Source: Podarcis vaucheri (lineage: Eukaryota). Taken from it: a stretch of 64,000 nucleotides of DNA. The notes beneath the pieces were generated by a model, which saw nothing but the letters and a program-made list of their open reading frames with translations, did no database searches and was not told the DNA's origin. This document shows positions 12,401 to 43,000 of this stretch, piece by piece (positions within the stretch are counted from its first letter, which is position 1; each line of letters begins with the position of its first letter). The stretch lies in assembly GCA_965113315.1 (NCBI GenBank), contig OZ220363.1; one strand, written 5' to 3'. Position numbers and translations under genes: made by a program.

Positions 12401-13614
12401 TGGCACATATACATTATGCTGGTGATGAAGGCCTACTGGATACATCAGTCTCCCTGAGCGCTGCAAACTTTGTAAACAGCAGTGTGACTGGGATGATGCA
12501 GCCAACTCAACAGCACAGCAGTCAGTGAAGATTTGCACATGCAAATCATTGCATAGTTTAGGCAGGGAGGTGCAAGTCGTGGCCCTCTAGGTATTGGGCT
12601 CCAAATTCCACCAGCCCCAGTCAGCATGCCCAATGGCCAGCGAGGGTGACAGGCAAGGATTTTTTTCAGCTGCAACTTGCCGGAACTCCGTTCTAGCACC
12701 TCTCAGGTGGGTGCCATTGCCATTTTCCTCCTCTGGAACACCCTCCTCAGGAAAGCTCACCTAGCACTGACTTCAATGTCTTTTTGGTATGAAGCCAAAA
12801 TAACCTTCTTTTATCTCCCCAGAACCTTATGGTGTTTTATATTATGTGGTTTTAACATCCGTTCTTATTGTTGTCTGGTGGTTCTGCCATTTCACGTTTC
12901 TTTTTGGTTGTTTTTAGCTACTCTTGAGAACCTTCACAATTGAAAGGTATAATAAATATGTCTGAAAATCAGTATATTAAAAAAAGCATGCTCAAACAGC
13001 ATTGCTTTGACTTGACAGGTACCCCTTGAAATTAATTTCTACTGCTGCTGCTACAGTCTCTGCCTACGACTGAAAAGGGAACAATAGAAAAGAAGGATTT
13101 TAATCTGTGTACATAGTATATATAGACATAAAACTCGCATTCTTACCCTGTAAACTGTTCCATTGACAAGACAGACATCTGGGATTGGTACTGAAAACAG
13201 AAACAGACAATTACTTTAAAATATGGTGGGGAAATTATGTTTATAAGGTCCATTCCTGGATCCTCATCCCCCTAAGCTTTCTTCATTTCACCTGCCTAAA
13301 TTAAGTGGGTGGGGGATCAATTTGATGTTGCTATTGTTTCACAGCTGGGAGGCAGATATCCTTGCTGATCTAGTGCAGATCAACTAGAGATCTACATCCA
13401 CCTTTTGCTGACTCCAGCTTTAAATATGGTAACTTATCTGACAAGGAAAATCTTTGAAAAAGATTGGGGGGCGGGGAGAGGAGCGTAAGGTGATACCTCA
13501 TTGCTCACTTGACTGTTGGATATAATCCTTTCTGTGCAAAAGTGAAAGGAGATACATGAACACTTTGCGTGTGTATTTATTTATTGCTTAAGGCAATGTA
13601 TATAGTCCCTCCCA

Positions 13615-13652
<38 letters not shown>

Positions 13653-16530: not shown

Positions 16531-16578
<48 letters not shown>

Positions 16579-19500: not shown

Positions 19501-21345
19501 TGGAGAACCTGAAAAGGTTTATGGTGCCCTGGAGGACTGACTAGATCTTGAAAACATCCTTGTAAAATGAGTAGAGTTGAAAGACCAAGGCAGGGACTTC
19601 TGTGGTGGGAACTGCTCAGGCTCTGGCAGGTTTAAAGTATCTACCAGCAAAGAATGCAGTTTAACCAGAATGCAGTTAAACCTGAAGCTGGCAATCATAA
19701 TTATTTGGAGAGGAATTGACATGGAATTAATGACCATATAAATAGATAAGAATGCATTTTTAAAAACAAATCCTATTAATTAATGCAACATTCCCCTAAA
19801 AAATTAACACATCAACTATCCGCTGCTGCCATACTTGGGACGATACTAACTAATTAAAGATCTTCATCTAAAGATTTTGATATGACCTTTATACATTCAC
19901 CATTTTCTAGTAAGTCATATACATATTTCATATTGTCTCTTATTCAAAGATACAAAAGTGTAGCCATTAGCATTCAGAGAGCTAATTATTTAGTTAATAC
20001 ATACCCATCATCACAGGTGACAGGGTGAATGGGGCCACATGCATTGTACACCTTGTCTTTGGGGCAGTGGTATGCTGTATATAAGAGAATAAAATGTGTC
20101 ATTAAGAAGCAGAATGACTCCAACATGAGGCAGAACTATGTATTACATGTTGTCATATTATGTTTTTCCCATTAGCTTTTTTAAAAAATCACATAAAGCA
20201 TCTATGGTTGGCATCAGATTGAATGAAGGAGTGGCTTTTGCAAAGGCAAGGCACACCCATACCCAGAGGACTGTTGTAAGCCCCAGTGCATGCTCAACCC
20301 TGACCTACAAATGGAAATATCCATAGCTGAGAACATGGATTCAATACAGACATCCACAGATGGATTCTGATCCAGTGGAGAGAACCTGTTGGTGGAAAGA
20401 GAGGGAGGCAACATTTGCCAATTCCCCCATCCTCTTGCAGTGCCACCTCCCATGTTGATCTGGAGGATCCTCCAACCCTCTGGAGCAGTTTCAGAGGTTG
20501 CAATGGGCTTCAGGGAGATGGAGCAATTAGCAAAAGTCAACTTCCCTTCCCTTCTGGATTCAATCCACTATGAAGTGCAGAAGCTGAAATCTTAATTCTT
20601 GTGAAAAAAAGACAAAGACTGAGGGAAACAAACATGCAACTGAAGTTAGAACATGCTATTGTTCAGTTTGCATTGATTACTATTCATCTGCTGACACCGT
20701 TTTGAATGGTTGATTGATTGGTTCACTCAGCTATTATTGCTCTACGATAAATTGCTGCTCACTTTAGGATAAGCGAAAATACGTTGTCTTCCACTTACGG
20801 CATTTTCCTAGCGTCATGTTCCTCCAGTCAGTACAAACCCCTTTAGCTATGCAGAGGGAAGCATATATCTCCAAATTGTAGCAAGGCACAGACTCATTGG
20901 AAGACTGACAGGCTTCAAGGAGGCAGTCTTCATAGTATATTCTGGGAGGCAGAACCTTATGGCATTCTTCAAAGACACTTCAAATACAAAAGAATACATG
21001 GTTGAACTATGGCTCATAAATATTGCAATGTCCCCTTGCCACCCCATTTTCAGTATGAAACTGCGACTGAAAGGATAATATTCTTAGCAAATATGTACAG
21101 TACATTTCACAATGATATCAATTCTAGAAAGATCAGCTTTGTATTACTATGGAAGTAAAAATCCTACAGTGTTGCAATGTTAAAGCTCTTTATGGTATAT
21201 AAGGTAGCCGAGATGCCTTGAAGATACTTAAACAATGCCATGCTTATTGTTGGATGGATCTTATGTTCTTTGTATACTGTGTTAGTTTTATGATGTTAGC
21301 CACCCTGAGCCTGGCTCCGGCTGGGGAGGGCGGGGTACAAATAAA

Positions 21346-21399
<54 letters not shown>

Positions 21400-24300
21400 C
21401 ATCTGTGAAATATAAGAACAATAAAGGAAAAGGGTGTTATCTATCCCTAGAAAACATTCCTGATGGCCTAGCAGTAGATAAAAACATAAGAATATAAGGT
21501 GAAAAGTTCTGCTGGAGCAGACCAAAGCTTTATCTTTCTAGTCCTGTGGTCAACCAGTGGCTTATGTCCTGCCCACAAGCTGGACAGATGAGGTCATGTG
21601 CACAATGTCTTGGTGATGATTTTATGTTCCTATGTGTTCATCAGAAGTGGGTTTTTTTAAAAAAATAAAGTTGTCAAAGCGATAGCTTGCTTTGCAGGAT
21701 CTAACAGCTGAAGCATTTGTAAAGGCTGTGTTGAACTTACTCGCTCACAATCAGCTCACACAGAGGAGATGGAGTGGTGCAGGGTGTTGGTGCTGGTGTT
21801 GTCGTTCTTGGCTCATGCGGTGTTGTTGTTGGAGGTGATGTTGTTGGCACTCCATAGCAATGGGGCTTGTTTTTATCGTAGGTCTTCCAGTAGCTGGCCA
21901 TTTCTGAGCAAGAGGAAGCTTCATGGCCGTTGGGGAGGCGGCAGTCATCTGTCTTGTCATTTGAACATACCCCTAGGAGGGAGAAAGGGTCGCATCGTAA
22001 GTGTGTTGAATATGCAGTATACATTAGTGTCACTTTGAATGACATTGAAATAACGAAGCGGACTTCCTAATTGAAAAAGCCATTGTTGCTATCATAAAGT
22101 GTACCTTATATGCATATTCTGTTTCCTACTCTTCAGTATGGATATATTAGTCAAACCCAGGCTTCCTCAACCTCAACTCTCCAGATGTTTTGAGACTACA
22201 ATTCCCATCACCCCGACCACTGGTCCTGCTAGCTAGGCATCATGGGAGTTGTAGGCCAAGGTTGAGGAAGCCTGGTCAAACCATAGGTCCACCAAGCCCA
22301 ATTAGGTCTACTCTGATGGGCAGCAGTTCTTTCTTCATCCCAAGAACTTTCAGATGTAGATACCAGGAACTGGACCTGGGATGGTCTAACACCACACACA
22401 TGTGTTCGGCCATGGAGCTGTGGCCCCTCCCCCCAATGGTTAATTTTTCTTTATTGCTTTTCTAATGCTCCACATCTTCCTATGTAAATAAATTTGTTTT
22501 GAAGGAATAACATTATGAAAAAGGATTTGAATGGTTGGGGATGTTTTGATCCCTTTACTTACCACATTGCCCCTCTGTGTTATGCTGAAATAGGTCAAAG
22601 GGGAGTTTTACTGAGAAAGTGAGCCCGTTGAAAGATATAAAAGCTTGGAGTGCAGGGATTTCGACACTCATGACAGTTCCAGTACTGGTGACAGAAATAC
22701 CATATTTGGTGAAATCTCCATTGACCGGCTCATGGTTGAAAAAAATCTGAAACAGCAGCACAAAAGAGGCAAAAGAATATAAATCTGGAGGATTCAGAGT
22801 CTTCCAGAGCACTTGAGGGCAATCAGTCCTGGCCATGCTGATATTTCCTAGCTGCCTGTTTTTATACTACTTTTAATACTGCAATGATTATTTTACTGTG
22901 TTATTGTATTTAATTAAAAACAGTAAGCCATAGTTTTTAACTGAAAACATACAGACACATGTATATATATGTGTGTGTGCACGCGTATGTCATTGATTCT
23001 ATAACCATTAACTGGAAGTAAAGTGCATTAAACTCAGTGGGGGCTTTCTTCTGAGTAGTCATTATAGAGATGCACAGTTTGAGGAATAGCATCTCAATTC
23101 TAAACATAATCTACCCCATGGGATTAAGTAGCATTCCTCAAACAGGCACTTTGCCATGATTGTTATGTAAATTTTACAACCCATTAGCTGGTTTATAAAT
23201 GTCATTTTGACATTTTTGTTTTGGTAAAAAATAATTATTGTAGGAAGCTGACACAGTTTGAGAAATCTGTGGCACACAGTACCTTGTTAATTCTCACTCC
23301 TTCATGCACTTCACTGCTTAGCACAACTTCCATTGAGTTGTAATTTACAATGATGGCTCTGGAACAGGGCTGAATTTTCGTGACATCACAGAAATAATTG
23401 TCAAGCAAAACACTGAAGTTTCCATGTATATTCACAATCTCTTTCACCAAGATGTAAGTGCAGTTGTCATAGAAAGTGTAATTAGTGCCATCAAATGTCA
23501 GATAGTTAGCATCCCAACCAGTGCAAATACCTGTAACAGAAATCAAAAGATCAAATAAGGTTCACCTGGAGTGTAGTCTTGAGCAAACCAGAGGACCAAA
23601 GTAAATATACACTATGAAATCATTGGTTATTATGCTGTTGCTTGTATTAACTTTGATGGGCTAGGTCCTAGTTTGGTACACCAATTAGAAAGTGGGAATA
23701 ATAAGAGAATTCTAGGAGAGCAATGTTGATGGTGCAGATTTTGTGGTGAAACAACTGCCATAGCCAGAGTCCTGATGACTAGTGACAGCCAGGGCAGGAA
23801 TTGGTTGAACCACAGCATTTTCTCCCTTACTCCTTTCCATTGAAATATGAAAAGCCACCCATTGACTTTTTTAGGAGTATGCTAGAGAAACAAGAAGTTT
23901 AGGCTTCTGCAAATCCATAGCCTTCCCTGAAAGACCCTCAAAAGTCTCACCTCCCTCAATAAATGGAATTGCAACTGCATGACATTACACCCCCTGAGCT
24001 TTGTATGATACAGTCCTGTAAGTTAAATATCTTAATCTCTCATTCCATATCATAAAGATATATGTACTTTTTCGGAATGCTCAGTTATACTTACATTCAC
24101 ATTCATAGCGTTCGACACAGCCATCCTTATCTACTATTTTTATCGGTGGGAGTCCACTCACACATACTGTCTTCTCTACAGGTGGTTGTGGCTTCAGAAC
24201 TATTTTGTTGTTTCCTTCACAAGTTGCCACAGTGCAGTTATTAAACATCCAAGTTTCATTGGTCTAGAGGGAAACCAGAGAAAAAATATTCTACAAGTGT

Positions 24301-27300
24301 CATACTCTTAGAAAGACACCATCTCCACTACCAAGGGTTCTTGTCCTACTGGAAGAGGAAAACCCATCTGGAGGCAAAATGGGGTGTTAGGGGGAGAGGC
24401 TGTTTCTCAATGGTAGAGCACATGGTGTGCGTGCAAAAGGTCCCATGTTTAATCCTTAGTAACTCCAGATAGCCCCAGGGAAGACTCCTATATGAAACCC
24501 TGAGGAGTCATTAGCAGTCAACAAGGACAAGAGTGAGATAGATAGACCCATAGTCTGCCTTGGTATAAGCCAGCTTGCTATGTTTTAGAAAAGTGAGGCA
24601 AACAAGAACATTTGGAATGGACTTGAGATTTCTCCATATATGACTCTGTGGCAGGGGTAGGCAACCTGTAGCCTAACCAAAGTTGTTGGATTCCAGTTCC
24701 CACCAGTTCCAACCACCAGTGGTCAGGGATAATGAGACTTTGAATCCAGTAACATCAAGATCCCCATCCATTTTCAGTGAGATCAATAGCACAAATAAGA
24801 TCTATAACAAGAGAGTCGATTGTGACCAAGTGCATGTTCACATGACAGCTCCTCATACCTCCCAAAACAGTGGTGCTCATACAGCATGAATTGTGGGCAA
24901 AAGTCCCTGGGGTAGTCAGGATTTTCTTTTCAACATAGACACCTTGTTCACCAAGAGAGGATTCATTTGATGGTTTTTAAGAGGGGTGAAAATGGAGTGA
25001 GAGAGGCATTTGGTCCAACAGCTTTCCCCAACATGGAGCCCTTTTGATGTTTAGGGCTACAGCCTCTCATCAGCTAGCAAAAGCTATCCCCAATGTATGT
25101 ATGAAAACAATGCTAATTACCTTTCTTGGTGGATCAATATTAGGGCAACCTGTTACAGGAGTTGTGGGGGTTGATACAGCTGCAGTAGTGTATACTCTGG
25201 TTGATGGAACAACAGTAGTGGGTGACGGAGAAGGCTGGGTTCCTGCAGTTGTAACTGATGGTGTTGATGGGTGGGAAGGAGTTGTTGAAGGACATGGTCC
25301 CTGGAACACCTCAATTTCACAGCTTCTGTTGCAAACTGCATAAAAACTGCATCCGGAACTATCAGTTCTATTGTATATTACTTCCCCTATTTTAAAAAAG
25401 GAGGGAATTTATCATAAAGCACCATGTACGAAAATTATAAAACAAAACATGTCATAACATTCTAAAATGCAAATAAAGTTCAGATGAATTTGTCTACTGA
25501 CATGCAGTGCAACTCTCAGCAGCAAGTCTGAGAAAGCGTGCATTGGATTGTGTAATTTGTAGTGGGCAAGCTCCAACCCCACACCACCATGGGAGATCAG
25601 CAAGAGGTTCAGCCGAGGCCTTTTCCCCAGTTGGTCCTTAGCCAGTAAATCATACACAAGTATAACTTGTGACTCACAATCCTAGGAAGTAAAAGGACAT
25701 GTTGGCCACCTGTTAAAAGTAATGGCTGGCAGATAGTAGTAGATGTACATGAATATGAGTCAGTTGTAAAAGGGGATAGGGGATAGGTGAGAGATGGATC
25801 TATTGACACCTCTGTGGTTCAATACTGTTCAAAGAATGTATGGCATGAGAGAATTACAGAATTCATCTCAGCTAATACTTTTGTTCCATAGGTTGTTAAA
25901 ACATATAAAGCAGTGTAGAGTAAAACACAGATACATAAATCCAATAAAGCATTGAAAATATCAGCCCCAAACTTGCAAAAAACAAACAAAAAACCCAGAT
26001 AAAGGAGGATTAATAAAATGATTTAAATGTAAATGTAAAAAGTAAGTAAAAAGGTTTCTACTCCTCCTCAAACTATACAGCAGAGCACCAAAGTAGACTC
26101 CCCTGTGGAGAGTGGTGCACAATCATGATGTAGGTATAAGGAAGGACGTATGTTGAGCATATGTACAATCAAAGCAATATGTGAATGAAAACATTGCTTC
26201 AGCTGCTTTTCAAATTCATTAAGAGAAACTCACCAGGAGAAAACAAGCCCTTACTAAATCCGGGCACACGGCAGAAACATGGAGTTGTTCTGCTCAAAGT
26301 GACTGTTGTAGTTCCTGTTGTAGAAGGTATGGAAGTACTTGTTGCTGCTGAAGACACAATAGAAAAGAAATAAATGTATAACAGTTGTTACGTACTGCTT
26401 GAAGACATACTGCTGGAAATGGATGCTACACACTGTAGATACTTAAGACTTCAGTGTACACTTCCAAAGCACCAACTGAAGCATAACAATTCAGAATTCC
26501 AACTGAGCTCAACTGGACTTACATGTATCTTTAGGGCTGGAGAATTTAACTTGATAATTGTACTACAAAAACCAGTTTAATGGATCAGATCAATACTTTG
26601 CTTACTTGCTGTTCTTATTATACACCTACCATACTATCAAGAAACAGGGGAATCCAGCTATATTCCTCCCAGTATCAAGAAACACACCCCTCCAGTCCAA
26701 AGGTGCTGTTAATAAAATTCCAAATATCTAGCCAGAGAGCTATCTACTACTTGTAATAGCATTGAAAACTTCTTTGAAAAATGCACACTGAGATCTAGGC
26801 AAACATTTTTGATAAGTTGCTAGCTGATAGACACTAAGTTTCATAATTGGGATACCAATTTTTGAAAAGGGTGGTATATGAAATAAGATCACCAAGCCCC
26901 CATTAATATGAAACAATTTGCTAACATTTGGCATGACACCTGTAATTGAGTAACATGTAATAAATTTAACTGTTGGAATATTTACCAAAGGTAACAAGAT
27001 TTTCATACCATGATATGCAGATTCATTCTGTAATTACCTGTTGTAACAACGACCAAAGGCTTAGTGGAAAATGGCACTCTGGTAGGGACAGTTGCTGTTT
27101 CTACAGTAATCCCAGTAGTGGATATCGTCGACACAGGTTTGGAAACATGGGTAGATGGAAGAGATGTGGTTGAAACGGTGGAAGCCACTCCAGAAGTGAT
27201 GGAAGGTGTGCTGACGGAGCCAGGGGTTGAGAAAGGGATGGTGGTCATGGGCTTTCCTGTTGTAATTCCAGGAGTGGTGGAAACAAGGGTGGTACTTTGG

Positions 27301-30300
27301 GTGGTAGTGACTACAATGGGAGGTGGTGAAGAAGCTGTGGAGGATGCTGGAGTTGTGCTCTTGCCAGCAGTGCTGCCTGGTGTTTCTGTGGTTGTTGGCT
27401 TTCCTGTGGTTACTCCTGGAGTTGTGGAAACAAGAGTGGAGCTTTGGGTGGTGGTAAATACAATGGGAGGTGGCATAGAAACCGTGGAGGATGCTGGAGC
27501 TGTGCTTTTGCCTGCCGTGCTGCCAGGTTTTTCTGTGGTAGACGCAGCAGGTGTGCTCAGTGGTGTTGTGCTAGGATGGCAGGGCTTGTATTCACAGCAC
27601 TGGTATCTAACCTGGAAGTTATAACACATCTTGTCTGTTTGCTTTGAATTTTCGCACAAAAGTCCAACATGGAGGTTACATTGCACTTCCTGACCAAGCA
27701 GATACAGGCTGACATCAGGGTGATTCTCAGCTCTGCATTCAATGTCTTGTGGATGTTTGCAAATATTTCCTCCAGCTTTTCGGATGGTCTCAAAATTCTC
27801 TATATCGCCATCATCTGGACTGCTGGTAGGACGGTGCAAATCATACCAGGAGGTCCAGTTACACTTGGGGAGGCACACAGTAGATGTACTTTCTAGCGTA
27901 GTGGTAACAAGGGGAGCCAGGGTAGTTGTTGTGGTCAGCAGGCCTGGAGGGGTTTGTGCAGTGGTCCCGGTGGTGGGTATTGTTGAGGAAGGCTTGGAAA
28001 CAGGAGTGGACTGGAGTGTTGTGGCTGTCACAGTGGGGACCACTCCAGTGGAGACGGCAGCAGTGCTGACTGAGCCTGGTGTTGTGAGAGGGAGGGTGGA
28101 AAGCGGCGTTGAGTGGGTGGTGGTGGTTGGCTTTCTTGTTGTAACTCCTGGTGTTGTCGGAACAAGGGTGGTGCTTTCGGTGGTGGTGAATACAACGGGA
28201 GGTGGCGTAGAGCCCGTGGAGGATGCTGGAGCCGTGCTTTTGCCTGCCGTGCTGCCTGGTGTTTCTGTGGTTGTTGGCTTTCCTGTGGTTACTCCCGGTG
28301 TTGTGGAAACAAGGGTGGTGCTTTCGGTGGTGGTATGGACAACAGGAGGTGGCGTAGAGCCCGTGGAGGATGCTGGAGCCGTGCTCTTGCCCACCGTGCT
28401 ACCTGGGGCTTCTGTGGTGGTGGCACTTGTTGTGACCAGTGGCGCTGGCGTGGTTTCACAGTGCTTGTAGTCGCAACACAGTGCTCTCATCTCATAGTCG
28501 TAACAAATCTTGTACTTCCCTTTCTGTTTGGCATTCTCACAAAGGAGTCCAGTGTTGCTATCGCAGATCATGTTCTGTCCAAGTTCAGATGCGCTGAGCT
28601 CTGGGTAGTCCACTCCTCTGCACTCCACCTTTTGAGGGTGCTCGCAGATAGTACCGCCCGATGCCTGGATGCTCTTAATGTCCTCGCGATCGCCATCCCC
28701 AGGGTCGGAGCTTGGAGTGTGAAAATTGAACCAAGAGGTCCACTGGCATTTGGGTTGGCAACCGGTAGTGGTGCTTCCTGGCGTAGTGGTAACAAGGGGA
28801 GCCAGGGTGGTTGTAGTGGTCAGCAGGCCTGGAGGGGTTTGTGCAGTGGTCCCGGTGGTGGGTATTGTTGAGGAAGGCTTGGAAACAGGAGTGGACTGGA
28901 GTGTTGTGGCTGTCACAGTGGGGACCACTCCAGTGGAGACGACAGCAGTGCTGACTGAGCCTGGTGTTGTGAGAGGGAGGGTGGAAAACGGCGTTGAGTG
29001 GGTGGTGGTGGTTGGCTTTCTTGTTGTAACTCCTGGTGTTGTCGGAACAAGGGTGGTGCTTTCGGTGGTGGTGAATACAACGGGAGGTGGCGTAGAGCCC
29101 GTGGAGGATGCTGGAGCCGTGCTCTTGCCTGCCGTGCTGCCTGGTGTTTCTGTGGTTGTTGGCTTTCCTGTGGTTACTCCCGGTGTTGTGGAAACAAGGG
29201 TGGTGCTTTCGGTGGTGGTATGGACAACAGGAGGTGGCGTAGAGCCCGTGGAGGATGCTGGAGCCGTGCTCTTGCCCACCGTGCTACCTGGGGCTTCTGT
29301 GGTGGTGGCACTTGTTGTGACCAGTGGCGCTGGCGTGGTTTCACAGTGCTTGTAGTCGCAACAGAGTGCTCTCATCTCATAGTCGTAACAGATCTTGTAC
29401 TTCCCTGTCTGTTTGGCATTCTCACAAAGGAGTCCAGTGTTGCTATCACAGATCATGTTCTGTCCAAGTTCAGATGCGCTGAGCTCTGGGTAGTCCACTC
29501 CTCTGCACTCCACCTTTTGAGGGTGCTCGCAGATGGTACCGCCCGATGCCTGGATGCTCTTAATGTCCTCGCGATCGCCATCCCCAGGGTCGGAGCTTGG
29601 AGTGTGAAAACTGAACCAAGAGGTCCACTGGCATTTGGGTTGGCAACCGGTAGTGGTGCTTCCTGGCGTAGTGGTAACAAGGGGAGCCAGGGTGGTTGTA
29701 GTGGTCAGCAGGCCTGGAGGGGTTTGTGCAGTGGTCCCGGTGGTGGGTATTGTTGAGGAAGGCTTGGAAACAGGAGTGGACTGGAGTGTTGTGGCTGTCA
29801 CAGTGGGGACCACTCCAGTGGAGACGGCAGCAGTGCTGACTGAGCCTGGTGTTGTGAGAGGGAGGGTGGAAAGCGGCGTTGAGTGGGTGGTGGTGGTTGG
29901 CTTTCTTGTTGTAACTCCTGGTGTTGTCGGAACAAGGGTGGTGCTTTCGGTGGTCGTGAATACAACGGGAGGTGGCGTAGAGCCCGTGGAGGATGCTGGA
30001 GCCGTGCTCTTGCCTGCCGTGCTGCCTGGTGTTTCTGTGGTTGTTGGCTTTCCTGTGGTTACTCCCGGTGTTGTGGAAACAAGGGTGGTGCTTTCGGTGG
30101 TGGTATGGACAACAGGAGGTGGCGTAGAGCCCGTGGAGGATGCTGGAGCCGTGCTCTTGCCCACCGTGCTACCTGGGGCTTCTGTGGTGGTGGCACTTGT
30201 TGTGACCAGTGGCGCTGGCGTGGTTTCACAGTGCTTGTAGTCGCAACACAGTGCTCTCATCTCATAGTCGTAACAGATCTTGTACTTCCCTGTCTGTTTG

Positions 30301-33300
30301 GCATTCTCACAAAGGAGTCCAGTGTTGCTATCGCAGATCATGTTCTGTCCAAGTTCAGATGCGCTGAGCTCTGGGTAGTCCACTCCTCTGCACTCCACCT
30401 TTTGAGGGTGCTCGCAGATGGTACCACCCGATGCCTGGATGCTCTTAATGTCCTCGCGATCGCCATCCCCAGGGTCGGAGCTTGGAGTGTGAAAATTGAA
30501 CCAAGAGGTCCACTGGCATTTGGGTTGGCAACCGGTAGTGGTGCTTCCTGGCGTAGTGGTAACAAGGGGAGCCAGGGTGGTTGTAGTGGTCAGCAGGCCT
30601 GGAGGGGTTTGTGCAGTGGTCCCGGTGGTGGGTATTGTTGAGGAAGGCTTGGAAACAGGAGTGGACTGGAGTGTTGTGGCTGTCACAGTGGGGACCACTC
30701 CAGTGGAGACGGCAGCAGTGCTGACTGAGCCTGGTGTTGTGAGAGGGAGGGTGGAAAGCGGCGTTGAGTGGGTGGTGGTGGTTGGCTTTCTTGTTGTAAC
30801 TCCTGGTGTTGTCGGAACAAGGGTGGTGCTTTCGGTGGTGGTGAATACAACGGGAGGTGGCGTAGATCCCGTGGAGGATGCTGGAGCCGTGCTCTTGCCT
30901 GCCGTGCTGCCTGGTGTTTCTGTGGTTGTTGGCTTTCCTGTGGTTACTCCCGGTGTTGTGGAAACAAGGGTGGTGCTTTCGGTGGTGGTATGGACAACAG
31001 GAGGTGGCGTAGAGCCCGTGGAGGATGCTGGAGCCGTGCTCTTGCCTGCCGTGCTGCCTGGTGTTTCTGTGGTTGTTGGCTTTCCTGTGGTTACTCCTGG
31101 TGTTGTGGAAACAAGGGTGGTGCTTTCGGTGGTGGTATGGACAACAGGAGGTGGCGTAGAGCCCGTGGAGGATGCTGGAGCCGTGCTCTTGCCCACCGTG
31201 CTACCTGGGGCTTCTGTGGTGGTGGCACTCGTTGTGACCAGTGGCGCTGGCGTGGTTTCACAGTGCTTGTAGTCGCAACACAGTGCTCTCATCTCATAGT
31301 CGTAACAGATCTTGTACTTCCCTGTCTGTTTGGCATTCTCACAAAGGAGTCCAGTGTTGCTATCGCAGATCATGTTCTGTCCAAGTTCAGATGCGCTGAG
31401 CTCTGGGTAGTCCACTCCTCTGCACTCCACCTTTTGAGGGTGCTCGCAGATAGTACCGCCCGATGCCTGGATGCTCTTAATGTCCTCGCGATCGCCATCC
31501 CCAGGGTCGGAGCTTGGAGTGTGAAAATTGAACCAAGAGGTCCACTGGCATTTGGGTTGGCAACCGGTAGTGGTGCTTCCTGGCGTAGTGGTAACAAAGG
31601 GAGCCAGGGTGGTTGTAGTGGTCAGCAGGCCTGGAGGGGTTTGTGCAGTGGTCCCGGTGGTGGGTATTGTTGAGGAAGGCTTGGAAACAGGAGTGGACTG
31701 GAGTGTTGTGGCTGTCACAGTGGGGACCACTCCAGTGGAGATGGCAGCAGTGCTGACTGAGCCTGGTGTTGTGAGAGGGAGGGTGGAAAGCGGCGTTGAG
31801 TGGGTGGTGGTGGTTGGCTTTCTTGTTGTAACTCCTGGTGTTGTCGGAACCAGGGTGGTGCTTTCGGTGGTGGTGAATACAACGGGAGGTGGCGTAGAGC
31901 CCGTGGAGGATGCTGGAGCCGTGCTCTTGCCTGCCGTGCTGCCTGGTGTTTCTGTGGTTGTTGGCTTTCCTGTGGTTACTCCCGGTGTTGTGGAAACAAG
32001 GGTGGTGCTTTCGGTGGTGGTATGGACAACAGGAGGTGGCGTAGAGCCCGTGGAGGATGCTGGAGCCGTGCTCTTGCCCACCGTGCTACCTGGGGCTTCT
32101 GTGGTGGTGGCACTTGTTGTGACCAGTGGCGCTGGCGTGGTTTCACAGTGCTTGTAGTCGCAACACAGTGCTCTCATCTCATAGTCGTAACAGATCTTGT
32201 ACTTCCCTGTCTGTTTGGCATTCTCACAAAGGAGTCCAGTGTTGCTATCGCAGATCATGTTCTGTCCAAGTTCAGATGCGCTGAGCTCTGGGTAGTCCAC
32301 TCCTCTGCACTCCACCTTTTGAGGGTGCTCGCAGATGGTACCGCCCGATGCCTGGATGCTCTTAATGTCCTCGCGATCGCCATCCCCAGGGTCGGAGCTT
32401 GGAGTGTGAAAATTGAACCAAGAGGTCCACTGGCATTTGGGTTGGCAACCGGTAGTGGTGCTTCCTGGCGTAGTGGTAACAAGGGGAGCCAGGGTGGTTG
32501 TAGTGGTCAGCAGGCCTGGAGGGGTTTGTGCAGTGGTCCCGGTGGTGGGTATTGTTGGGGAAGGCTTGGAAACAGGAGTGGACTGGAGTGTTGTGGCTGT
32601 CACAGTGGGGACCACTCCAGTGGAGAAGGCAGCAGTGCTGACTGAGCCTGGTGTTGTGAGAGGGAGGGTGGAAAGCGGCGTTGAGTGGGTGGTGGTGGTT
32701 GGCTTTCTTGTTGTAACTCCTGGTGTTGTCGGAACCAGGGTGGTGCTTTCGGTGGTCGTGAATACAACGGGAGGTGGCGTAGAGCCCGTGGAGGATGCTG
32801 GAGCCGTGCTCTTGCCTGCCGTGCTGCCTGGTGTTTCTGTGGTTGTTGGCTTTCCTGTGGTTACTCCCGGTGTTGTGGAAACAAGGGTGGTGCTTTCGGT
32901 GGTGGTATGGACAACAGGAGGTGGCGTAGAGCCCGTGGAGGATGCTGGAGCCGTGCTCTTGCCCACCGTGCTACCTGGGGCTTCTGTGGTGGTGGCACTT
33001 GTTGTGACCAGTGGCGCTGGCGTGGTTTCACAGTGCTTGTAGTCGCAACACAGTGCTCTCATCTCATAGTCGTAACAGATCTTGTACTTCCCTGTCTGTT
33101 TGGCATTCTCACAAAGGAGTCCAGTGTTGCTATCGCAGATCATGTTCTGTCCAAGTTCAGATGCGCTGAGCTCTGGGTAGTCCACTCCTCTGCACTCCAC
33201 CTTTTGAGGGTGCTCGCAGATGGTACCGCCCGATGCCTGGATGCTCTTAATGTCCTCGCGATCGCCATCCCCAGGGTCGGAGCTTGGAGTGTGAAAATTG

Positions 33301-36300
33301 AACCAAGAGGTCCACTGGCATTTGGGTTGGCAACCGGTAGTGGTGCTTCCTGGCGTAGTGGTAACAAGGGGAGCCAGGGTGGTTGTAGTGGTCAGCAGGC
33401 CTGGAGGGGTTTGTGCAGTGGTCCCGGTGGTGGGTATTGTTGAGGAAGGCTTGGAAACAGGAGTGGACTGGAGTGTTGTGGCTGTCACAGTGGGGACCAC
33501 TCCAGTGGAGAAGGCAGCAGTGCTGACTGAGCCTGGTGTTGTGAGAGGGAGGGTGGAAAGCGGCGTTGAGTGGGTGGTGGTGGTTGGCTTTCTTGTTGTA
33601 ACTCCTGGTGTTGTCGGAACCAGGGTGGTGCTTTCGGTGGTGGTGAATACAACGGGAGGTGGCGTAGAGCCCGTGGAGGATGCTGGAGCCGTGCTCTTGC
33701 CTGCCGTGCTGCCTGGTGTTTCTGTGGTTGTTGGCTTTCCTGTGGTTACTCCCGGTGTTGTGGAAACAAGGGTGGTGCTTTCGGTGGTGGTATGGACAAC
33801 AGGAGGTGGCGTAGAGCCCGTGGAGGATGCTGGAGCCGTGCTCTTGCCCACCGTGCTACCTGGGGCTTCTGTGGTGGTGGCACTTGTTGTGACCAGTGGC
33901 GCTGGCGTGGTTTCACAGTGCTTGTAGTCGCAACACAGTGCTCTCATCTCATAGTCGTAACAGATCTTGTACTTCCCTGTCTGTTTGGCATTCTCACAAA
34001 GGAGTCCAGTGTTGCTATCGCAGATCATGTTCTGTCCAAGTTCAGATGCGCTGAGCTCTGGGTAGTCCACTCCTCTGCACTCCACCTTTTGAGGGTGCTC
34101 GCAGATGGTACCGCCCGATGCCTGGATGCTCTTAATGTCCTCGCGATCGCCATCCCCAGGGTCGGAGCTTGGAGTGTGAAAATTGAACCAAGAGGTCCAC
34201 TGGCATTTGGGATGGCAACCGGTAGTGGTGCTTCCTGGCGTAGTGGTAACAAGGGGAGCCAGGGTGGTTGTAGTGGTCAGCAGGCCTGGAGGGGTTTGTG
34301 CAGTGGTCCCGGTGGTGGGTATTGTTGAGGAAGGCTTGGAAACAGGAGTGGACTGGAGTGTTGTGGCTGTCACAGTGGGGACCACTCCAGTGGAGACGGC
34401 AGCAGTGCTGACTGAGCCTGGTGTTGTGAGAGGGAGGGTGGAAAGCGGCGTTGAGTGGGTGGTGGTGGTTGGCTTTCTTGTTGTAACTCCTGGTGTTGTC
34501 GGAACAAGGGTGGTGCTTTCGGTGGTGGTGAATACAACGGGAGGTGGCGTAGAGCCCGTGGAGGATGCTGGAGCCGTGCTCTTGCCTGCCGTGCTACCGG
34601 GTGTTTCTGTGGTTGTTGGCTTTCCTGTGGTTACTCCCGGTGTTGTGGAAACAAGGGTGGTGCTTTCGGTGGTGGTATGGACAACAGGAGGTGGCATAGA
34701 GCCCGTGGAGGATGCTGGAGCCGTGCTCTTGCCCACCGTGCTACCTGGGGCTTCTGTGGTGGTGGCACTTGTTGTGACCAGTGGCGCTGGCGTGGTTTCA
34801 CAGTGCTTGTAGTCGCAACACAGTGCTCTCATCTCATAGTCGTAACAGATCTTGTACTTCCCTGTCTGTTTGGCATTCTCACAAAGGAGTCCAGTGTTGC
34901 TATCGCAGATCATGTTCTGTCCAAGTTCAGATGCGCTGAGCTCTGGGTAGTCCACTCCTCTGCACTCCACCTTTTGAGGGTGCTCGCAGATGGTACCGCC
35001 CGATGCCTGGATGCTCTTAATGTCCTCGCGATCGCCATCCCCAGGGTCGGAGCTTGGAGTGTGAAAATTGAACCAAGAGGTCCACTGGCATTTGGGTTGG
35101 CAACCGGTAGTGGTGCTTCCTGGCGTAGTGGTAACAAGGGGAGCCAGGGTGGTTGTAGTGGTCAGCAGGCCTGGAGGGGTTTGTGCAGTGGTCCCGGTGG
35201 TGGGTATTGTTGAGGAAGGCTTGGAAACAGGAGTGGACTGGAGTGTTGTGGCTGTCACAGTGGGGACCACTCCAGTGGAGACGGCAGCAGTGCTGACTGA
35301 GCCTGGTGTTGTGAGAGGGAGGGTGGAAAGCGGCGTTGAGTGGGTGGTGGTGGTTGGCTTTCTTGTTGTAACTCCTGGTGTTGTCGGAACAAGGGTGGTG
35401 CTTTCGGTGGTGGTGAATACAACGGGAGGTGGCGTAGAGCCCGTGGAGGATGCTGGAGCCGTGCTCTTGCCTGCCGTGCTACCGGGTGTTTCTGTGGTTG
35501 TTGGCTTTCCTGTGGTTACTCCCGGTGTTGTGGAAACAAGGGTGGTGCTTTCGGTGGTGGTATGGACAACAGGAGGTGGCATAGAGCCCGTGGAGGATGC
35601 TGGAGCCGTGCTCTTGCCCACCGTGCTACCTGGGGCTTCTGTGGTGGTGGCACTTGTTGTGACCAGTGGCGCTGGCGTGGTTTCACAGTGCTTGTAGTCG
35701 CAACACAGTGCTCTCATCTCATAGTCATAACAGATCTTGTACTTCCCTGTCTGTTTGGCATTCTCACAAAGGAGTCCAGTGTTGCTATCGCAGATCATGT
35801 TCTGTCCAAGTTCAGATGCGCTGAGCTCTGGGTAGTCCACTCCTCTGCACTCCACCTTTTGAGGGTGCTCGCAGATGGTACCGCCCGATGCCTGGATGCT
35901 CTTAATGTCCTCGCGATCGCCATCCCCAGGGTCGGAGCTTGGAGTGTGAAAATTGAACCAAGAGGTCCACTGGCATTTGGGTTGGCAACCGGTAGTGGTG
36001 CTTCCTGGTGTAGTGGTAACAAGGGGAGCCAGGGTGGTTGTAGTGGTCAGCAGGCCTGGAGGGGTTTGTGCAGTGGTCCCTGTGGTGGGTATTGTTGAGG
36101 AAGGCTTGGAAACAGGAGTGGACTGGAGTGTTGTAGCTGTCACAGTGGGGACCACTCCAGTGGAGACGGCAGCAGTGCTGACTGAGCCTGGTGTTGTGAG
36201 AGGGAGGGTGGAAAGCGGCGTTGAGTGGGTGGTGGTGGTTGGCTTTCTTGTTGTAACTCCTGGTGTTGTCGGAACAAGGGTGGTGCTTTCGGTGGTGGTG

Positions 36301-39300
36301 AATACAACGGGAGGTGGCGTAGAGCCCGTGGAGGATGCTGGAGCCGTGCTCTTGCCTGCCGTGCTGCCTGGTGTTTCTGTGGTTGTTGGCTTTCCTGTGG
36401 TTACTCCCGGTGTTGTGGAAACAAGGGTGGTGCTTTCGGTGGTGGTATGGACAACAGGAGGTGGCGTAGAGCCCGTGGAGGATGCTGGAGCCGTGCTCTT
36501 GCCCACCGTGCTACCTGGGGCTTCTGTGGTGGTGGCACTTGTTGTGACCAGTGGCGCTGGCGTGGTTTCACAGTGCTTGTAGTCGCAACACAGTGCTCTC
36601 ATCTCATAGTCGTAACAGACCTTGTACTTCCCTGTCTGTTTGGCATTCTCACAAAGGAGTCCAGTGTTGCTATCGCAGATCATGTTCTGTCCAAGTTCAG
36701 ATGCGCTGAGCTCTGGGTAGTCCACTCCTCTGCACTCCACCTTTTGAGGGTGCTCGCAGATGGTACCGCCCGATGCCTGGATGCTCTTAATGTCCTCGCG
36801 ATCGCCATCCCCAGGGTCGGAGCTTGGAGTGTGAAAACTGAACCAAGAGGTCCACTGGCATTTGGGTTGGCAACTGGTAGTGGTGCTTCCTGGCGTAGTG
36901 GTAACAAGGGGAGCCAGGGTGGTTGTTATGCCACCTGTCACTTTAGATGTAGTTCTGGATCCTGCTGTTGTTATTTCTGGTGTTGCTGCAGTTGTTGATG
37001 CACCACATGGTGTGTATATGCAGCATAGGAACCTGATTTCAAAATTCAGGCAGATTGGTGGTGTCTGATCCTTATTGTTGCATATCAAACCGTTAGACTT
37101 GGAACATTGTACCTTTTGTCCGAGGGTTTCTATGCTTTCATTAGGAAAGCGCTGAGCTCTGCATTCCACTTCATCTGGCATATTACATACTTTGTTTCCT
37201 CTATCTCTTATTTTCTCTGGTGTTTCATAATCCCCATTGTCTCGTCCAAATTTAGGGTAGCTGACATCATACCATTCTGTCCATTCACATGTTCTATGGA
37301 CACATACTGTTGTTTGCGCTGTAGTGGATTCTGTAAGAAACAACATCACTGGTTATTTTAATCCGGTTTATTTAGATCATAAATCTCCCTATCTGTTATC
37401 TGCCTCCTCTCTCCTTCTCCCATGTAACCTCTCTCCCAAGTTTTTTCTGTAGATGAGGCAGGGATTTGGGGGGAGGGGGGAACCAGAAGAGCACATTGGT
37501 GGAAGTGGATCATTCCATCTGGGGAGCTGCCATGCTTGAGCTGATTGAACCTTCAACTTAACTTTATGTTGATTTCCATCTTGTATATTTTTATTTTAAA
37601 ATAATATATGCAACATGTAACAAAAAATACTAACATGGTGTATTTGGGGATGTTTTCCTATGTTATAGAAGATTTGTAAAGTTTTTCATTATTTCTTCGT
37701 TTTCTTACATACTTTGTTTATAAATGCTTGCTTTTGATCATGTCGCATTTACATCTAGTTTGGTTGAGATAATTGGTAAAAAATTATGTTATGGAGCTGG
37801 CTCAAATACCTAAGTAGCGCTAAGGAGATTGCTCCATTAGTACAAGCCCTGTTGCACTAGTGGGACTCATTTGTGCTGGCTCTATTAACAGAAGTATTTA
37901 GTTGAATTTGTCCCTTTGTGTGGTGTTGTATGGCACCTCTGATTTTAACAGCTGACCCAAGATGTGGTGCTATTTGTGCTACTACTGCAGTGGTAGGAGC
38001 TGCTTCTCTGCTCTTTGGTGTGGTGCAGTGCATGTCTACTCAGAAGTATTATTCACTGTGTTCAATGGAACTTCTCTCAGCGAAGTTTGGAAAGAGTTGA
38101 AGCAAAAGATTTGGACTGAAATACCTGCTTCACTTGGTGTTGTAGTTGAAACTGTAGGTGGTATTGTGGTAGTCCCACCACATCTGAATAGTTCTCTGTG
38201 GATTGTTCCATTGACATCACACGTTGCAATCATGCACCAGCCCAAGCCATCTGTGGTGTTGTAGATGACATCCTTGTAGATATATGTCTTTCCTTCATAA
38301 TAGCAGTAGCATGCTGAAAATTGACAGAGTAAGAATGGTCAGGTAACATCATATGAAATATGATATAAGGTGCCATTCATAACTCACTACATACAGCTTA
38401 CCTTTGGCATCGTAGTTACACTCTATGCCTTTACTGGTGCATGTACTGTAAAAAAAATGATAGGAAAATGTGAGACCCAGGAATCATAAAACTGTATTCT
38501 GCTGTTTATTTTCTACTTAGTTTGGTCTGGAAGTTAATTTCATAGTTTTTCCCCTGCCCCCTTAAGCATTCATTTACCGTACGACTTCTTGTCTGTGATT
38601 TCATCTACCACTTTCACACTGAATTGCAAATAGGAACATTCTAATAATTTTCTTGTTCTGGTTTTTGGGATTTATTGTGTATGTAAAATCCAATTTAAAA
38701 TATTACTTCAGTCAATTAGATTCTCAGCATACTTCATTCTAATGGTATATTGTGAGTATATGATAAAGGATGCAATCAGAGCAACAAGATTCATTCTAGA
38801 ATCAACAAGAATAACATCTCAAGGGGTATACAGAGTACAGTAGTACCTCCGGTTGCGAACGGGATCCATTCTGGAGGTCCAGCCGGATCCCAAGGTTTTC
38901 GCTACCCGATGAAAAGGTTTGTTGCTTTCACAACCTGAAGTTTACGTTACCGAGAGTAACGTAACTGGAGGTGCTACTGTAATTGATCATTTATCTTAGT
39001 GTTGTCAAGCTATACAAACTTACCATGCCTGACATGTCTTTCTTGAGTCAAATGTTTTTCCTAGTGGATGATAGTTACCCTGATCATCATAACAGCCACA
39101 CACATCAACACACGTCATCTCATCCTCATTGAAATAAGGCCTGTCTGCTGGACAGTGTGGGTAGCAGCCTGAGACAAAGGAAGGTGTGAGGGAGGTAAGA
39201 GCAATATATAAAATCTGTCAAGAAAGCAATTCCATTTTATTTACTTTGGGGGGGGTATTTTAATTAATATTTGTCATTGGTCCAGTGCTGGGATCTTTCC

Positions 39301-39967
39301 ACCAATAGCTTTTCCACATGCTTCCAAGTTTCCATGAAAGGAAAAAGCTTGTGGTCATTTGCAGGTGTGTCGAATGAGCCCTTGATCACATCTAGGCTGG
39401 CTCATAGAATTTAAGCCTGACTGCAAGCCATTTGAAACCCAAAAAGATGAGAACACAAGGTGACCTATTTTCTATTGGTTTAGACAACCAACAACACTCC
39501 CCCAAACTTGAAACCTATTAAATGTTGTGCATAGCTGGCTTAATGACCCTATAAGTCACTAGAAGTCTTCTTACCTTCCAAGCCAGGCAACTGATAATGG
39601 CATCTCCCGCTTGGGTTTCTGCATGTCTTCATGCATGGGGCTCCACAAGGCTTGTAGTGCCATTCACATTCACGTTCATCATTGTAATAATCACAGAACA
39701 TTGCTAAGGGGAACCGAAAGAAAAAGGTTGAGGACCAGACATTCCACCATGGATCTGTATTGCTGTCAATGCCATTAAAATAATGGTGGGCACCATGACA
39801 AAGTATGCTCATGAGGCCAATACCTAAACTGATAAGAAGGTGGGAAGCAAAGGCATGAAGAAAGCACTGAAAATGAATGTAGTTATTTCTATTTATTACA
39901 ACATAGTTATATCAATAATCCTACATTAGGCAGTTGCTGATTCATTGAAGGTATTCACAGTACTGTA

Positions 39968-40008
<41 letters not shown>

Positions 40009-43000
40009 TCCAGACATTTTCTTCAGTGTGCTGTTTATTGTCATATATATCTAATGGAAAAATTATCTTGAAGCTAATATCTCATTTCCCCTTCACCCTC
40101 CTCCCACTTCCAGTATACATTCAAGTGTGGTCCAATACTCACGACAGAATGATGGTGTTCTCCATGATATGCACACTCCAAATTCACTACATGCTTGAGC
40201 ATACGCAGCTACAGCTGTACAGAAGCATTCACAATCTCCCCCCGTGTCACAAGCGCAGGAATCAGTTACACAAGCTTCGTAATATCTTGTTGGCTCAACC
40301 TGTTAAAACATTGAAGCATCAGCTATGGGTCCTGCTGACATTTCCTAAGTTTGTTCCATGGGCGATAGTATGATTGAGAAGTTGTTGGTAATATCCCCAC
40401 CCCCTGGGTTTGCAATTGCTTTCATAGATTGTTGGCTAGTGTGCAAAAGATCCAAAGGGCCAAACTAAATATGAGGTCTGAATGCATCTTTGCATTTAAT
40501 GTGTAAACAGTAATTATCAGCCCCTCCACCACACCAGCTGATTCTATTTACAGTGGTACCTCGGGTTAAGTACTTAATTCATTCTGGAGATCCGTTCTTA
40601 ACCTGAAACTGTTCTTAACCTGAAGCACCACTTTAGCTAATGGGGCCTCTTGCTGCTACCACGCCGCCGGAGCCCGATTTCTGGTCTTATCCTGAAGCAA
40701 AGTTCTTAACCTGAAGCACTATTTCTGGGTTAGCGGAGTGTGTAACCTGAAGCGTATGTAACCCGAGGTACCACTGTACATTAAATATTTGCATACAGCG
40801 TAACAAAAACTAAAACATAAGGAACGTAAGAAATTCAAAGTCAGCGAGAAGTTCACATCTAAAATGTCTATCCATGAAAAGTGTCCTTTCAGGGAGTGCT
40901 AGTTGCATTTTAAAAAATACCCCCAAAACCTTAAGGTGCAATGGGAAGGCACATTTAACATCCTTTCACACTTTGCTCTAAGTGGTGAAGATAGAGGCTC
41001 GGATCCAGAGTGTTCATACAGAAGACTGTACACCGACTGGTGTGCTCATGCAACTTGCTGAAGAATATGAGCACTGCTCATTCAGGCAGCGTGGATCACC
41101 TCTTGGAGAGAGGAGGGGAGGGGAAGGGGTATCCAGACTGACTCCCATACCCACTCTTTCCCCCCAAAAGACTGCACAGACCTGGAACTGCCCTCCCATT
41201 ATCTTTTTGCATTGGCACAAATACAGGCCTGTAAGCAAAATTCGATTTATGCACATGTATCTTGCCTGCTGTATTGGGGTGGTAAAAGTTCCATAGTTGA
41301 ATATTCACATCAAGAATTGATTAGCAAAAGAAGGCAATAAATTGGGGAGAAGAGTCGGTGGAAGAAGATTGGAAGAAATTTAAAGACTATTTACAGAAAT
41401 ATTGCAAAGTTAATGAATGTTAGAATGATGTCAGAATGAAGTTAAGTGGTTTAAGCAGCAATGTTTTAAAGGTGTATGAAAAATGGATTAATAACAGGTG
41501 AGAACTCAAAGTTATATTAAGTTAAAGGATTAAGATAAAAATAAAGAGGGGAAAAAACTGCTGAATTAACTAACTGAACTGGAATACAAAAAGGGAGGTG
41601 TGAGGAGGTCAGGGAAGTAAGGATATGAATATATGATATGGAAAGATTGATGTTTTTTTTCTTTTTTAAATGTTTTTTATCTTTTTCTGTATTTTGTATT
41701 TTTCTTTTTTCCCCTTTTTTATTTCTATTGTTGTCTTTTCGTCTATTTTTTTTTTTACTTATGTAACTTTTTTCCTTTGAAAACTTAATAAATATAATTT
41801 TTAAAAAAGAAGGCAATAAATTGGGTCATAACAGTCAGTTAGGGACTTCCCTTTAAAACAGGAAGAAAAGATATCAGCATAAGCTAATTTTCTGAATGGT
41901 CTGTCTTGACTTAGCCTGAATTCTTCTTATTAGTATTTTTCTAAATGGCTTCTTCACAATCCAAAGCATTAGAAACAGGATCTAGTGATAAACATTTACA
42001 CTGAACACACTCCAAAATCTAGAATATGACAGCAGTGGGACACATAGTAGAGGGTTGTTAAAGGCACTACTTAAAGGTGCTGCTAGACAGTCTTCAGAGT
42101 TGGTGACATCCTGTAGGGTGTTACGTGCCTTCTGTAATGGACTGTTGAAATCCATGAAACCACCACATGTATAATTATAGACTTGTAATTGCTCAGGAAT
42201 TGTGGTGAACACCTGAAAAATTCTAGACTTCAAGATAGTTCTGCCGCAAGGTATACCTGAGAGTGGCAGGCAGCAAAGGCCTTGCTGTTGATGATGCTGC
42301 ATTGCTTCTGTGCCCAGGACTTCCTGTAAGGGTTCTTGAAGCAAGGATCCTTTGTGCATTTGGCTTCAGGACATGTGGGAGACACCTTCCAACTATTACC
42401 AAACTCCAGCACATCACTTACTACAGACTGACTCCGGGTAGTGAAGTCATTCATTCCATTGCCATCATAGTTCCCACATAAACCACAGACCTGACCCTGC
42501 ACAAAGAAGCAATGAAAACACTTGAGTTACAGATAAATTGCATGAACCTCTTAGCCCAACTTAATTTTTTATTTTCTCCCATTTGGTTAATTAACACGCT
42601 GCCATCTCTTATTACAGGAAACTATCATTATTTGTTGCATTTAGAAAACACAAGCCATGTGTGCCTAGAGGTAAGAGATTTGTTTTTTCTTTCCTTCCTA
42701 TGAAGATTATTTTGCATTTGTTCAAAAATACACAAAAAGAAAGAATTTTATATTGTGTTCGATTTCTCAGTTATTGTTAATCTACAAGTTATTGTCTATT
42801 CATAACTTCATAACTTCTCCATCTTATTGCCATATGCTGATCAAAAGGGCAGCAGACATATATTGAAAATATACTGCATTGGTATAAAATTCATTGAAAT
42901 GTTCAAACATTGCTCATATTTTGAAATGATAACAGAACTATTATATTTGGTCTCCTTATCAAAACATGGTGTTTTCTGGGTCAGTTAAAAAGTAGATGCT

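Follow-up and report, generated by a model that had tools for sequence, protein, structure and literature searches.

An exon of 10.3 kb in the lizard Podarcis vaucheri (contig OZ220363.1; the window, that is, the whole stretch of DNA analysed, is 64,000 nucleotides long) encodes twelve CysD domains that are set at nearly constant intervals by PTS spacers. The question raised by this locus is whether such a regular arrangement is an undescribed architecture specific to one lineage, as the first-pass annotation proposed, or a usual state of this mucin family. Our reading, to which we assign a probability of roughly 0.8, is that a lacertid lizard carries here a complete gel-forming mucin gene of the MUC5 type, of which this is the central exon. 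The gene lies in the MUC5B position beside TOLLIP and contains a CysD+PTS module present ten times in tandem (as assembled); unequal crossing-over and gene conversion have likely preserved its uniformity.

The central exon and its gene

The open frame runs from stop to stop at 27006-37352 on the minus strand (3449 aa), and the exon occupies 27038..37330 on that strand (10,293 nt, 3431 codons, phase 1-1) with an AG acceptor and a GT donor. The first-pass annotation had given a single exon with exactly these ends and no strand. The splice joints 37330/38125 and 27038/26347 are both joined in contigs of run X20, which comes from a related organism and whose status as RNA is a guess; raw RNA runs yielded four reads in X24 and one in X22, all fitting only partly. 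Open reading frames on the plus strand or in other frames across the array were rejected as shadows of the repeat, and no Pfam family was found in the three other open reading frames of at least 150 aa in the window (4146-4808, minus; 50887-51399, plus; 60937-61404, minus).

The Pfam profile Mucin2_WxxW (PF13330) matches twelve stretches of the exon at 87-95 bits (cut-off 22.4), in agreement with the twelve CysDs counted earlier. Each contains 10 Cys, and the tryptophan motif is WTEW in the first and WTSW in the other eleven. CysD1 (37005..37304, minus) is unique and orthologous between species, and is followed by a 44-aa PTS linker (36873-37004, minus). Unit U2 (35988..36872, minus) is 295 aa long and is made up of a 101-aa CysD (36570-36872) and a PTS spacer measured at 194 aa, where about 195 had been estimated. 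Units U3-U7 (31563..35987, minus) are five copies of 885 nt with 295 aa each, U8 (30531..31562, minus) reaches 344 aa by an additional, third copy of a PTS sub-repeat of 49 aa (147 nt), and U9-U11 (27876..30530, minus) have 295 aa each, with a diverged 3' end of U11 that marks the array boundary. The exon closes with CysD12 (27579..27875, minus), which is diverged (about 50% identity to an internal CysD), and a final PTS of 180 aa (27038..27578, minus). At 66% identity to the internal spacer, the final PTS appears from its sequence to be an older copy of the CysD+PTS unit.

The amplified unit is the whole CysD+PTS module, as the first-pass annotation held; all ten units are near-identical as it stated, but the length of 295 aa applies to nine of them, U8 being the exception. 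Along the exon the CysD-to-CysD spacing is 144, 295 (six times), 344 and 295 (three times). Units U2-U10 differ pairwise at 1-9 nucleotides, and U11 differs from the others at 15-19 owing to its diverged 3' end. With 92 Ser/Thr and 28 Pro, the 194-aa internal spacer is a PTS domain by the criterion used for gel-forming mucins (Ser+Thr at least 40%, Pro above 5%). An internal CysD matches MUC5AC CysD7 (8ov0) with E 3e-25 and a MUC5B CysD (8oer) with E 3e-23, and its acidic GD-x-E motif, which may serve calcium binding, aligns with the solved CysDs. For one internal CysD, structure prediction (pLDDT 90) gave a TM of 0.90 to 8ov0 and 0.88 to 8oer, which indicates that the domain has the CysD fold.

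The rest of the gene was located by tblastn with the mucin-5B-like proteins of Podarcis muralis (P0002) and Zootoca vivipara (P0008), with exon-by-exon identities of 72-100%. The upstream exons encode the D1-D2-D'-D3 head (38125..62992, minus) and the downstream exons encode D4, VWC and the cysteine-rich C-terminus (6316..26347, minus), and together they match residues 1-1308 and 4147-4988 of P0002. The first coding exon lies about 5.9 kb past the window end (G000:C1:78189862), so the gene runs out of the window. The layout is of the MUC2/MUC5 type, with three N-terminal VWD-C8-TIL assemblies, a central PTS region and a fourth VWD assembly, and the Pfam content of P0002 is 4 VWD, 4 C8, TIL and 10 CysD. 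The final exons correspond to the Cys-rich C-terminal end of P0002, a putative cystine knot by analogy with the family; no cystine-knot family appeared among the Pfam matches at E 0.001.

A TOLLIP CUE exon lies tail-to-tail with the mucin gene, 3.7 kb left of the window, and the upstream neighbours are a second MUC5 gene (MUC5AC-type) and then further VWD genes. The gene is the last mucin of the cluster, i.e., it is in the MUC5B position, and the same gene order has been described (PMC4948705). In head-region trees (one of them a FastTree of 44 rows, with P0109 omitted because its head is too short) it groups with gecko, anole, alligator and rhea in the clade of sauropsid 5B-position proteins (SH-aLRT 99). 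Mammalian 5AC and 5B cluster together in these trees; a joint 5B clade was not recovered in the free trees and was not rejected when imposed (AU p 0.113, 20 of the 44 rows). The gene is a sauropsid MUC5 in the MUC5B position.

The repeated CysDs and their possible roles

By analogy with the family, the D3 head and the C-terminal knot would be the sites at which the protein polymerises, and CysD1 may serve head assembly. O-glycosylation would turn each 194-aa spacer into a stiff brush about 30 nm long, since brushes of this kind extend by about 1 nm per 6 aa (PMC6874590). We lean somewhat towards the view, again by analogy with relatives, that the repeated CysDs stiffen the gel by acting as non-covalent stickers at even intervals. 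The CysD of MUC2 forms dimers (PMC3195396), and with a poly-CYS protein of twelve domains the mean mesh is 118 nm, down from 148 nm (PMC6861317). Gel stiffening was shown with engineered rCYSx12 and Oikosin1 (PMC4431476, PMC6861317), which carry 12-13 CysDs per chain and, unlike the window gene, have neither PTS spacers nor D domains. The idea that CysDs set mesh size has been published (PMC3195396, PMC4431476). The CysDs of MUC5AC and MUC5B are monomeric according to earlier work cited in PMC3195396, and docking of MUC5AC CysD1 was not seen in filaments (PMC11912381), so the partners of the stickers may be domains of another kind or other molecules.

In a possible, though doubtful, alternative the array mostly lengthens the glycosylated chain, and its repeated CysDs are for the most part passengers or have roles in folding, in packing or in binding other partners (D domains, transglutaminase links, microbes). 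MUC2 CysD1 docks on D1-D2 and not on another CysD, and isopeptide links have been reported (PMC7599080). In one snake orthologue there are four CysDs, and plain PTS repeats fill an interval of 1420 aa; between lacertids the internal CysDs diverge faster than CysD1 and CysD12. Against this, the 10 Cys, the WxxW and the GD motif are conserved in all units, and mucus is stiffened by the poly-CYS protein (PMC6861317). The complex prediction for two internal CysD copies (score 0.00, mark 0.32) points neither way.

Distribution of the array and the origin of its regularity

Runs of at least eight near-identical units are present in 28 of the 203 homologues retrieved; a query from rhea, covering 3160-10058 aa, gave 274 matches, of which the best 120 were analysed. 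All ten lizard orthologues placed in trees have the array, seven of them with at least 12 CysDs, and it also occurs in MUC5 proteins of alligator, ratites and turtles. This comparison contradicts the idea of an undescribed architecture confined to one lineage: the shared regular layout that the first-pass annotation had named as refuting it is essentially present in these groups, though not in the five snake orthologues. Runs of at least four units were found in none of these five and in only 5 of 14 archosaur and turtle 5B-position proteins, and some of the protein models may be incomplete. CysD counts elsewhere reach 24 in alligator, 28 in zebra finch, and 20 each in a bat and coho salmon. 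The uniform arrays have periods of 250 aa in a gecko, 236 in an alligator lizard, 266 in an anole and 223 in an agamid; in other sauropsids they are 256 (alligator), 276 (rhea), 221-232 (turtles) and 164-173 aa (finches), and outside the sauropsids 224 (bat), 261 (gundi) and 162 aa (coho salmon). Over 29 arrays the range is 162-343 aa.

The closest relatives are the orthologues in Podarcis muralis (295-aa unit; CysD 93% and spacer 98% identity) and Zootoca vivipara (294-aa unit; CysD 87% and spacer 91%). Both share the first CysD and the diverged last CysD with the window, CysD12 being 96-99% identical. P. muralis has 10 CysDs and an off-length unit of 388 aa, Zootoca has 7 and one of 344 aa, and the positions of the off-length units differ from that in the window, with its 12 CysDs. 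The sauropsid 5B-position MUC5 proteins of the same clade (geckos, Elgaria, Anolis, Pogona, Tiliqua, Alligator, Rhea) likewise have a homogenised CysD+PTS array after a unique CysD1. They differ in having periods of 212-276 aa, 10-24 CysDs and internal CysDs with 42-53% identity to those of the window, and their last CysD is usually homogenised, whereas that of the window is diverged.

Human MUC5B and MUC5AC each have one central exon of 10.4-10.9 kb with near-identical internal CysDs and homologous PTS parts (PMC9712336), and human alleles gain or lose CysDs jointly with PTS domains (PMC11344006). The human exon is called a super-repeat in the title of Desseyn 1997. MUC5B has 7 CysDs and MUC5AC has 9, and their PTS blocks are longer and uneven, consisting of 29-aa or 8-aa repeats (10, 11, 16 and 11 repeats in PTS3-6 of MUC5B). 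The lizard spacing is more uniform than that of either human mucin, as the first-pass annotation had said.

In a tree of 247 CysDs from 21 proteins the internal copies cluster by species and the first CysDs cluster together. The clustering of internal CysDs by species points to concerted evolution, probably via unequal crossing-over and gene conversion. Adjacent units are more alike than under random order (5.2 vs 6.3 differences, permutation p 0.017), and five of eight shared variants lie in contiguous units. GC3 is 0.61-0.63 in the ten internal CysDs, compared with 0.36 in CysD1, 0.475 in CysD12 and 0.43 in 26 other exon pieces. The raised value is what biased gene conversion would give, and selection could be an alternative cause. 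The uniform period would most simply be a by-product of whole-unit recombination, with a spacer length bounded by selection and not tuned to 295. It is tentatively suggested that a uniform (CysD-PTS)n array is the common MUC5 state across bony vertebrates, re-homogenised in each lineage at its own fixed period within a narrow band (162-343 aa), and that primates and snakes are outliers with lengthened plain PTS.

It is improbable that the lizard lineage evolved, under selection, a fixed 295-aa cross-link interval for a special mesh size. The 294/295-aa period is common to three lacertids, unlike other lizards, and primate MUC5B is less evenly spaced; however, uniform arrays that are equal or longer occur in the other lizards, alligator, rhea, turtles, finches, bat, gundi and coho salmon, uniformity is obtainable from whole-unit recombination alone, and CysD number differs among the three lacertid records, each of which has one off-length unit.

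An assembly expansion of a shorter repeat is very improbable: the units are 98-99.9% identical, no contig in the runs examined spans the array and the two X1 single-copy contigs differ twofold in depth, which leaves the depth ratio ambiguous, but each of the 45 pairs of units shows differences, no stop interrupts the frame, the 264 kb examined contains zero N, and the independent records of the two other lacertids carry the 294/295-aa unit. The depth of repeat contigs relative to single-copy flanks, about 8-12 in four runs under three organism labels (X1 7.9-11.7 against the CysD1 contig, X3 9.4-10.8, X5 7.7-9.1, X10 10.7), lends slight further support to the array, as contig depth is not copy number and the X1 or X3 values may depend on the assembly.

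Significance for MUC5 mucins

Published work already covers high CysD counts and concerted evolution, as well as the mesh-size idea and the gain of whole modules in human MUC5B, and the cross-vertebrate survey of uniform periods is the sole point for which no published match was found. No survey of how CysDs are spaced in reptiles or birds was found in the main texts searched, mostly outside subscription journals; the supplements and web tables of PMC4948705 list domain layouts and may show the arrays. As a single locus the gene is of minor importance: the allele is typical of lizard MUC5, and its number of CysDs is mid-range. Human MUC5B and MUC5AC are a poor yardstick for judging unusual mucin central exons. 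Near-perfect natural CysD-PTS repeats of differing period could serve as defined materials for tests of spacing and mesh. If the survey is unpublished and period tracks gel properties, these mucins would provide a natural series of spacer lengths, with sticker numbers of 7-28, in which to test how CysD number and distance affect mesh size.

The central exon and its array

The central mucin exon was placed by its splice signals at 37330-27038 (minus strand; 10,293 nt, phase 1-1), within a stop-free frame of 3449 aa at 37352-27006 on the same strand. In contigs of X20, a run from a related organism whose RNA status is a guess, introns of 794 and 690 nt are skipped exactly at the exon bounds; the contigs of the four DNA-type runs compared skip neither intron. 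The exon holds 12 matches to PF13330 (Pfam) with ten Cys each, and the intervals from CysD to CysD are 144, 295 (six times), 344, and 295 (three times) aa. The repeat unit consists of a 101-aa CysD and a 194-aa spacer (68 Thr, 28 Pro, 24 Ser) that carries two copies of a 49-aa sub-repeat. The last CysD shares ~50% identity with the internal CysDs, those of the ten near-identical units, and between the last PTS and the internal spacer the identity is 66%. This agrees with the regular layout described in the first-pass annotation, except that the eighth unit is off-length (344 aa) with three copies of the sub-repeat. The array (window 28001-36000) is a GC-rich island, 57% vs ~41% in the surroundings, with 30-38 CpG per unit.

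It is unlikely that the array is an assembly artefact: the two members of each of the 45 pairs of units differ from one another (by 1-19 nt), and separate records of two other lacertids, with 10 and 7 CysDs, carry the same unit. The depth of repeat contigs relative to single-copy flanks, ~8-12 in four runs, argues weakly in the same direction, as contig depth is not copy number and the ratio in run X1 would be 15-22 with its lower-depth intron contig as the reference. The count of ten units is an assembly-based figure.

The gene, its neighbours and its name

The whole gene was mapped by tblastn with the two best-matching proteins, both mucin-5B-like, from Podarcis muralis (P0002, 92%) and Zootoca vivipara (P0008, 85%), which marks the genome as that of a lacertid lizard. 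On the minus strand, the first coding exon lies ~5.9 kb past the window's right end, the head exons run from there to 38125, and the D4 and C-terminal exons follow the central exon, to 6316. The TOLLIP CUE exon is 3.7 kb left of the window, tail-to-tail with the mucin gene. A second MUC5 gene ends ~40 kb upstream; its central frame (L037:2456-9349, G000:C1:78246456-78253349, minus strand, 2298 aa) encodes ten CysDs at intervals of 160, 258, 324, 250, 216, 284, 181, 181, and 213 aa, the last seven near-identical, with uneven spacers (181-284 aa) of short Thr-rich repeats. VWD and CysD matches farther upstream are consistent with the order of ovomucin, MUC2, and MUC6 in PMC4948705. At the MUC2 position, four CysDs in separate short frames (L008-L010 and L018, G000:C1:78.44-78.45 Mb, 161-328 aa) suggest that the central region may be multi-exon like that of chicken MUC2 (layout in PMC11207715 and PMC3549977). 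Three long retroelement-like ORFs (LINE-, Ty3-, and DIRS-like by motif reading) sit between and beside the mucin genes on the minus strand, at G000:C1:78210233-78213262 (1010 aa), 78219204-78221255 (684 aa), and 78050895-78052769 (625 aa). By hand count, ~100 of the 150 VWD matches listed lie in one cluster on both strands at G000:C26:21.17-21.82 Mb, which we take to be a likely FCGBP-like expansion.

In head-region trees the window gene groups with the 5B-position proteins (last mucin of the cluster) of gecko, anole, alligator, and rhea, the neighbour gene groups with sauropsid MUC5AC, and mammalian 5AC and 5B form a clade of their own, as they do in PMC4948705. A joint mammalian and sauropsid 5B clade is not rejected (AU p 0.113). 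The name 'MUC5B' is therefore used here for the position of the gene.

Distribution of like arrays

The homologue set comprised 203 proteins (107 from a first search and 96 further from the best 120 of 274 matches in a second), with isoforms included; CysDs were counted with a profile built from these data, and a run was defined as consecutive CysD+spacer units that share 80% identity or more. At least 12 CysDs were found in 47 of the 203, and runs of at least eight near-identical units in 28; these are not prevalences because multi-CysD proteins rank first in searches. Among tree-placed proteins, runs of at least four occur in 10/10 lizard orthologues (at least eight in 7/10, at least 12 CysDs in 7/10), 5/14 archosaur or turtle 5B-position proteins, and 0/5 snake proteins. 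In annotation models, the CysD number and period are 15 and 250 aa in Gekko, 15 and 236 in Elgaria, 22 and 223 in Pogona, 24 and 256 in Alligator (22/23 intervals), 14 and 276 in Rhea, 28 and 164 in zebra finch, 20 and 224 in the bat Glossophaga, 13 and 261 in gundi, 20 and 162 in coho salmon, and 11 and 343 in a wrasse; MUC5AC-named proteins have 12-14 and 221-232 in turtles, 21 and 179 in Mergus, and 22-25 and 173 in sparrows. The modal period is 162-343 aa over 29 long arrays among the matches listed, window included, and the window array is mid-sized. Like arrays are so numerous and widely spread in these models that the window array is not a special case, and the lineage-specific architecture first proposed for it is not borne out.

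Snake orthologues (P0062, P0052, P0077, P0079, P0081) have only 2-4 CysDs, and in Erythrolamprus one interval, of 1420 aa, consists of plain PTS repeats; in snakes the spacer rather than the module may have been amplified, or the gene models may be incomplete.

Origin and proposed working

When 247 CysDs, drawn from 21 proteins, are placed in one tree, the internal copies cluster by species and the first CysDs cluster with each other; last CysDs are likewise separate in lacertids. Concerted evolution of the CYS domain is in print (PMC4431476). In human MUC5B, CysD2-6 are near-identical with homologous PTS tails (PMC9712336), and human alleles gain CysDs jointly with PTS domains (PMC11344006, PMC13345508). 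Within the window, adjacent units are more alike than chance order predicts (p 0.017) and 5/8 shared variants are in adjacent units, as predicted by tandem duplication through unequal crossing-over; the 3/8 that are scattered point to conversion or to recurrent change. Internal CysDs have a GC3 of 0.61-0.63, compared with 0.36 and 0.475 for the CysDs that flank them and 0.43 for other exons (0.46-0.51 vs 0.21-0.38 for a like contrast in the neighbour gene), and minority variants run GC to AT in 16 cases and AT to GC in 6, from which we infer that GC-biased gene conversion may have acted. Relative to the window units (27876-36872), ~7 (P0002) and ~13 (P0008) of 101 internal-CysD positions differ, against ~4 and ~10 of 199 in CysD1 and CysD12, a higher internal divergence (Fisher p 0.048 and 0.021; rounded counts, post hoc, uncorrected). 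The internal-CysD excess over its own spacer is found in Podarcis (p 0.035) but not in Zootoca (p 0.31; both post hoc, uncorrected).

In both sequence and predicted fold, one internal CysD resembles the solved MUC5AC CysD7 and MUC5B CysD. As in the family, the chain would polymerise through its two ends, head and tail, and its PTS spacers would become glycan brushes (PMC7599080); at ~6 aa per nm (PMC6874590), the predicted spacer length is roughly 30 nm. That the repeated CysDs act as stickers, putative non-covalent cross-link sites, is slightly more probable than not. Counting against a simple CysD-CysD link, MUC5AC and MUC5B CysDs were monomeric in earlier work cited by PMC3195396, MUC2 CysD1 docks onto D domains (PMC7599080), and MUC5AC CysD1 was not seen in filaments (PMC11912381).

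The locus is a real, well-formed, ordinary MUC5 mucin with a layout that recurs in most of the lizard orthologues and in many further vertebrates. For many species, mucins with as many as 25 CYS domains are in print, and the number and distance of these domains are expected to govern net tightness (PMC4431476); CysD/PTS alternation in bird and reptile MUC5 is noted in PMC1552070 and PMC4948705. A tabulation of uniform periods in sauropsids was not found in the literature searched, but one may already be in print. If unpublished, the comparative pattern of periods merits a short survey.
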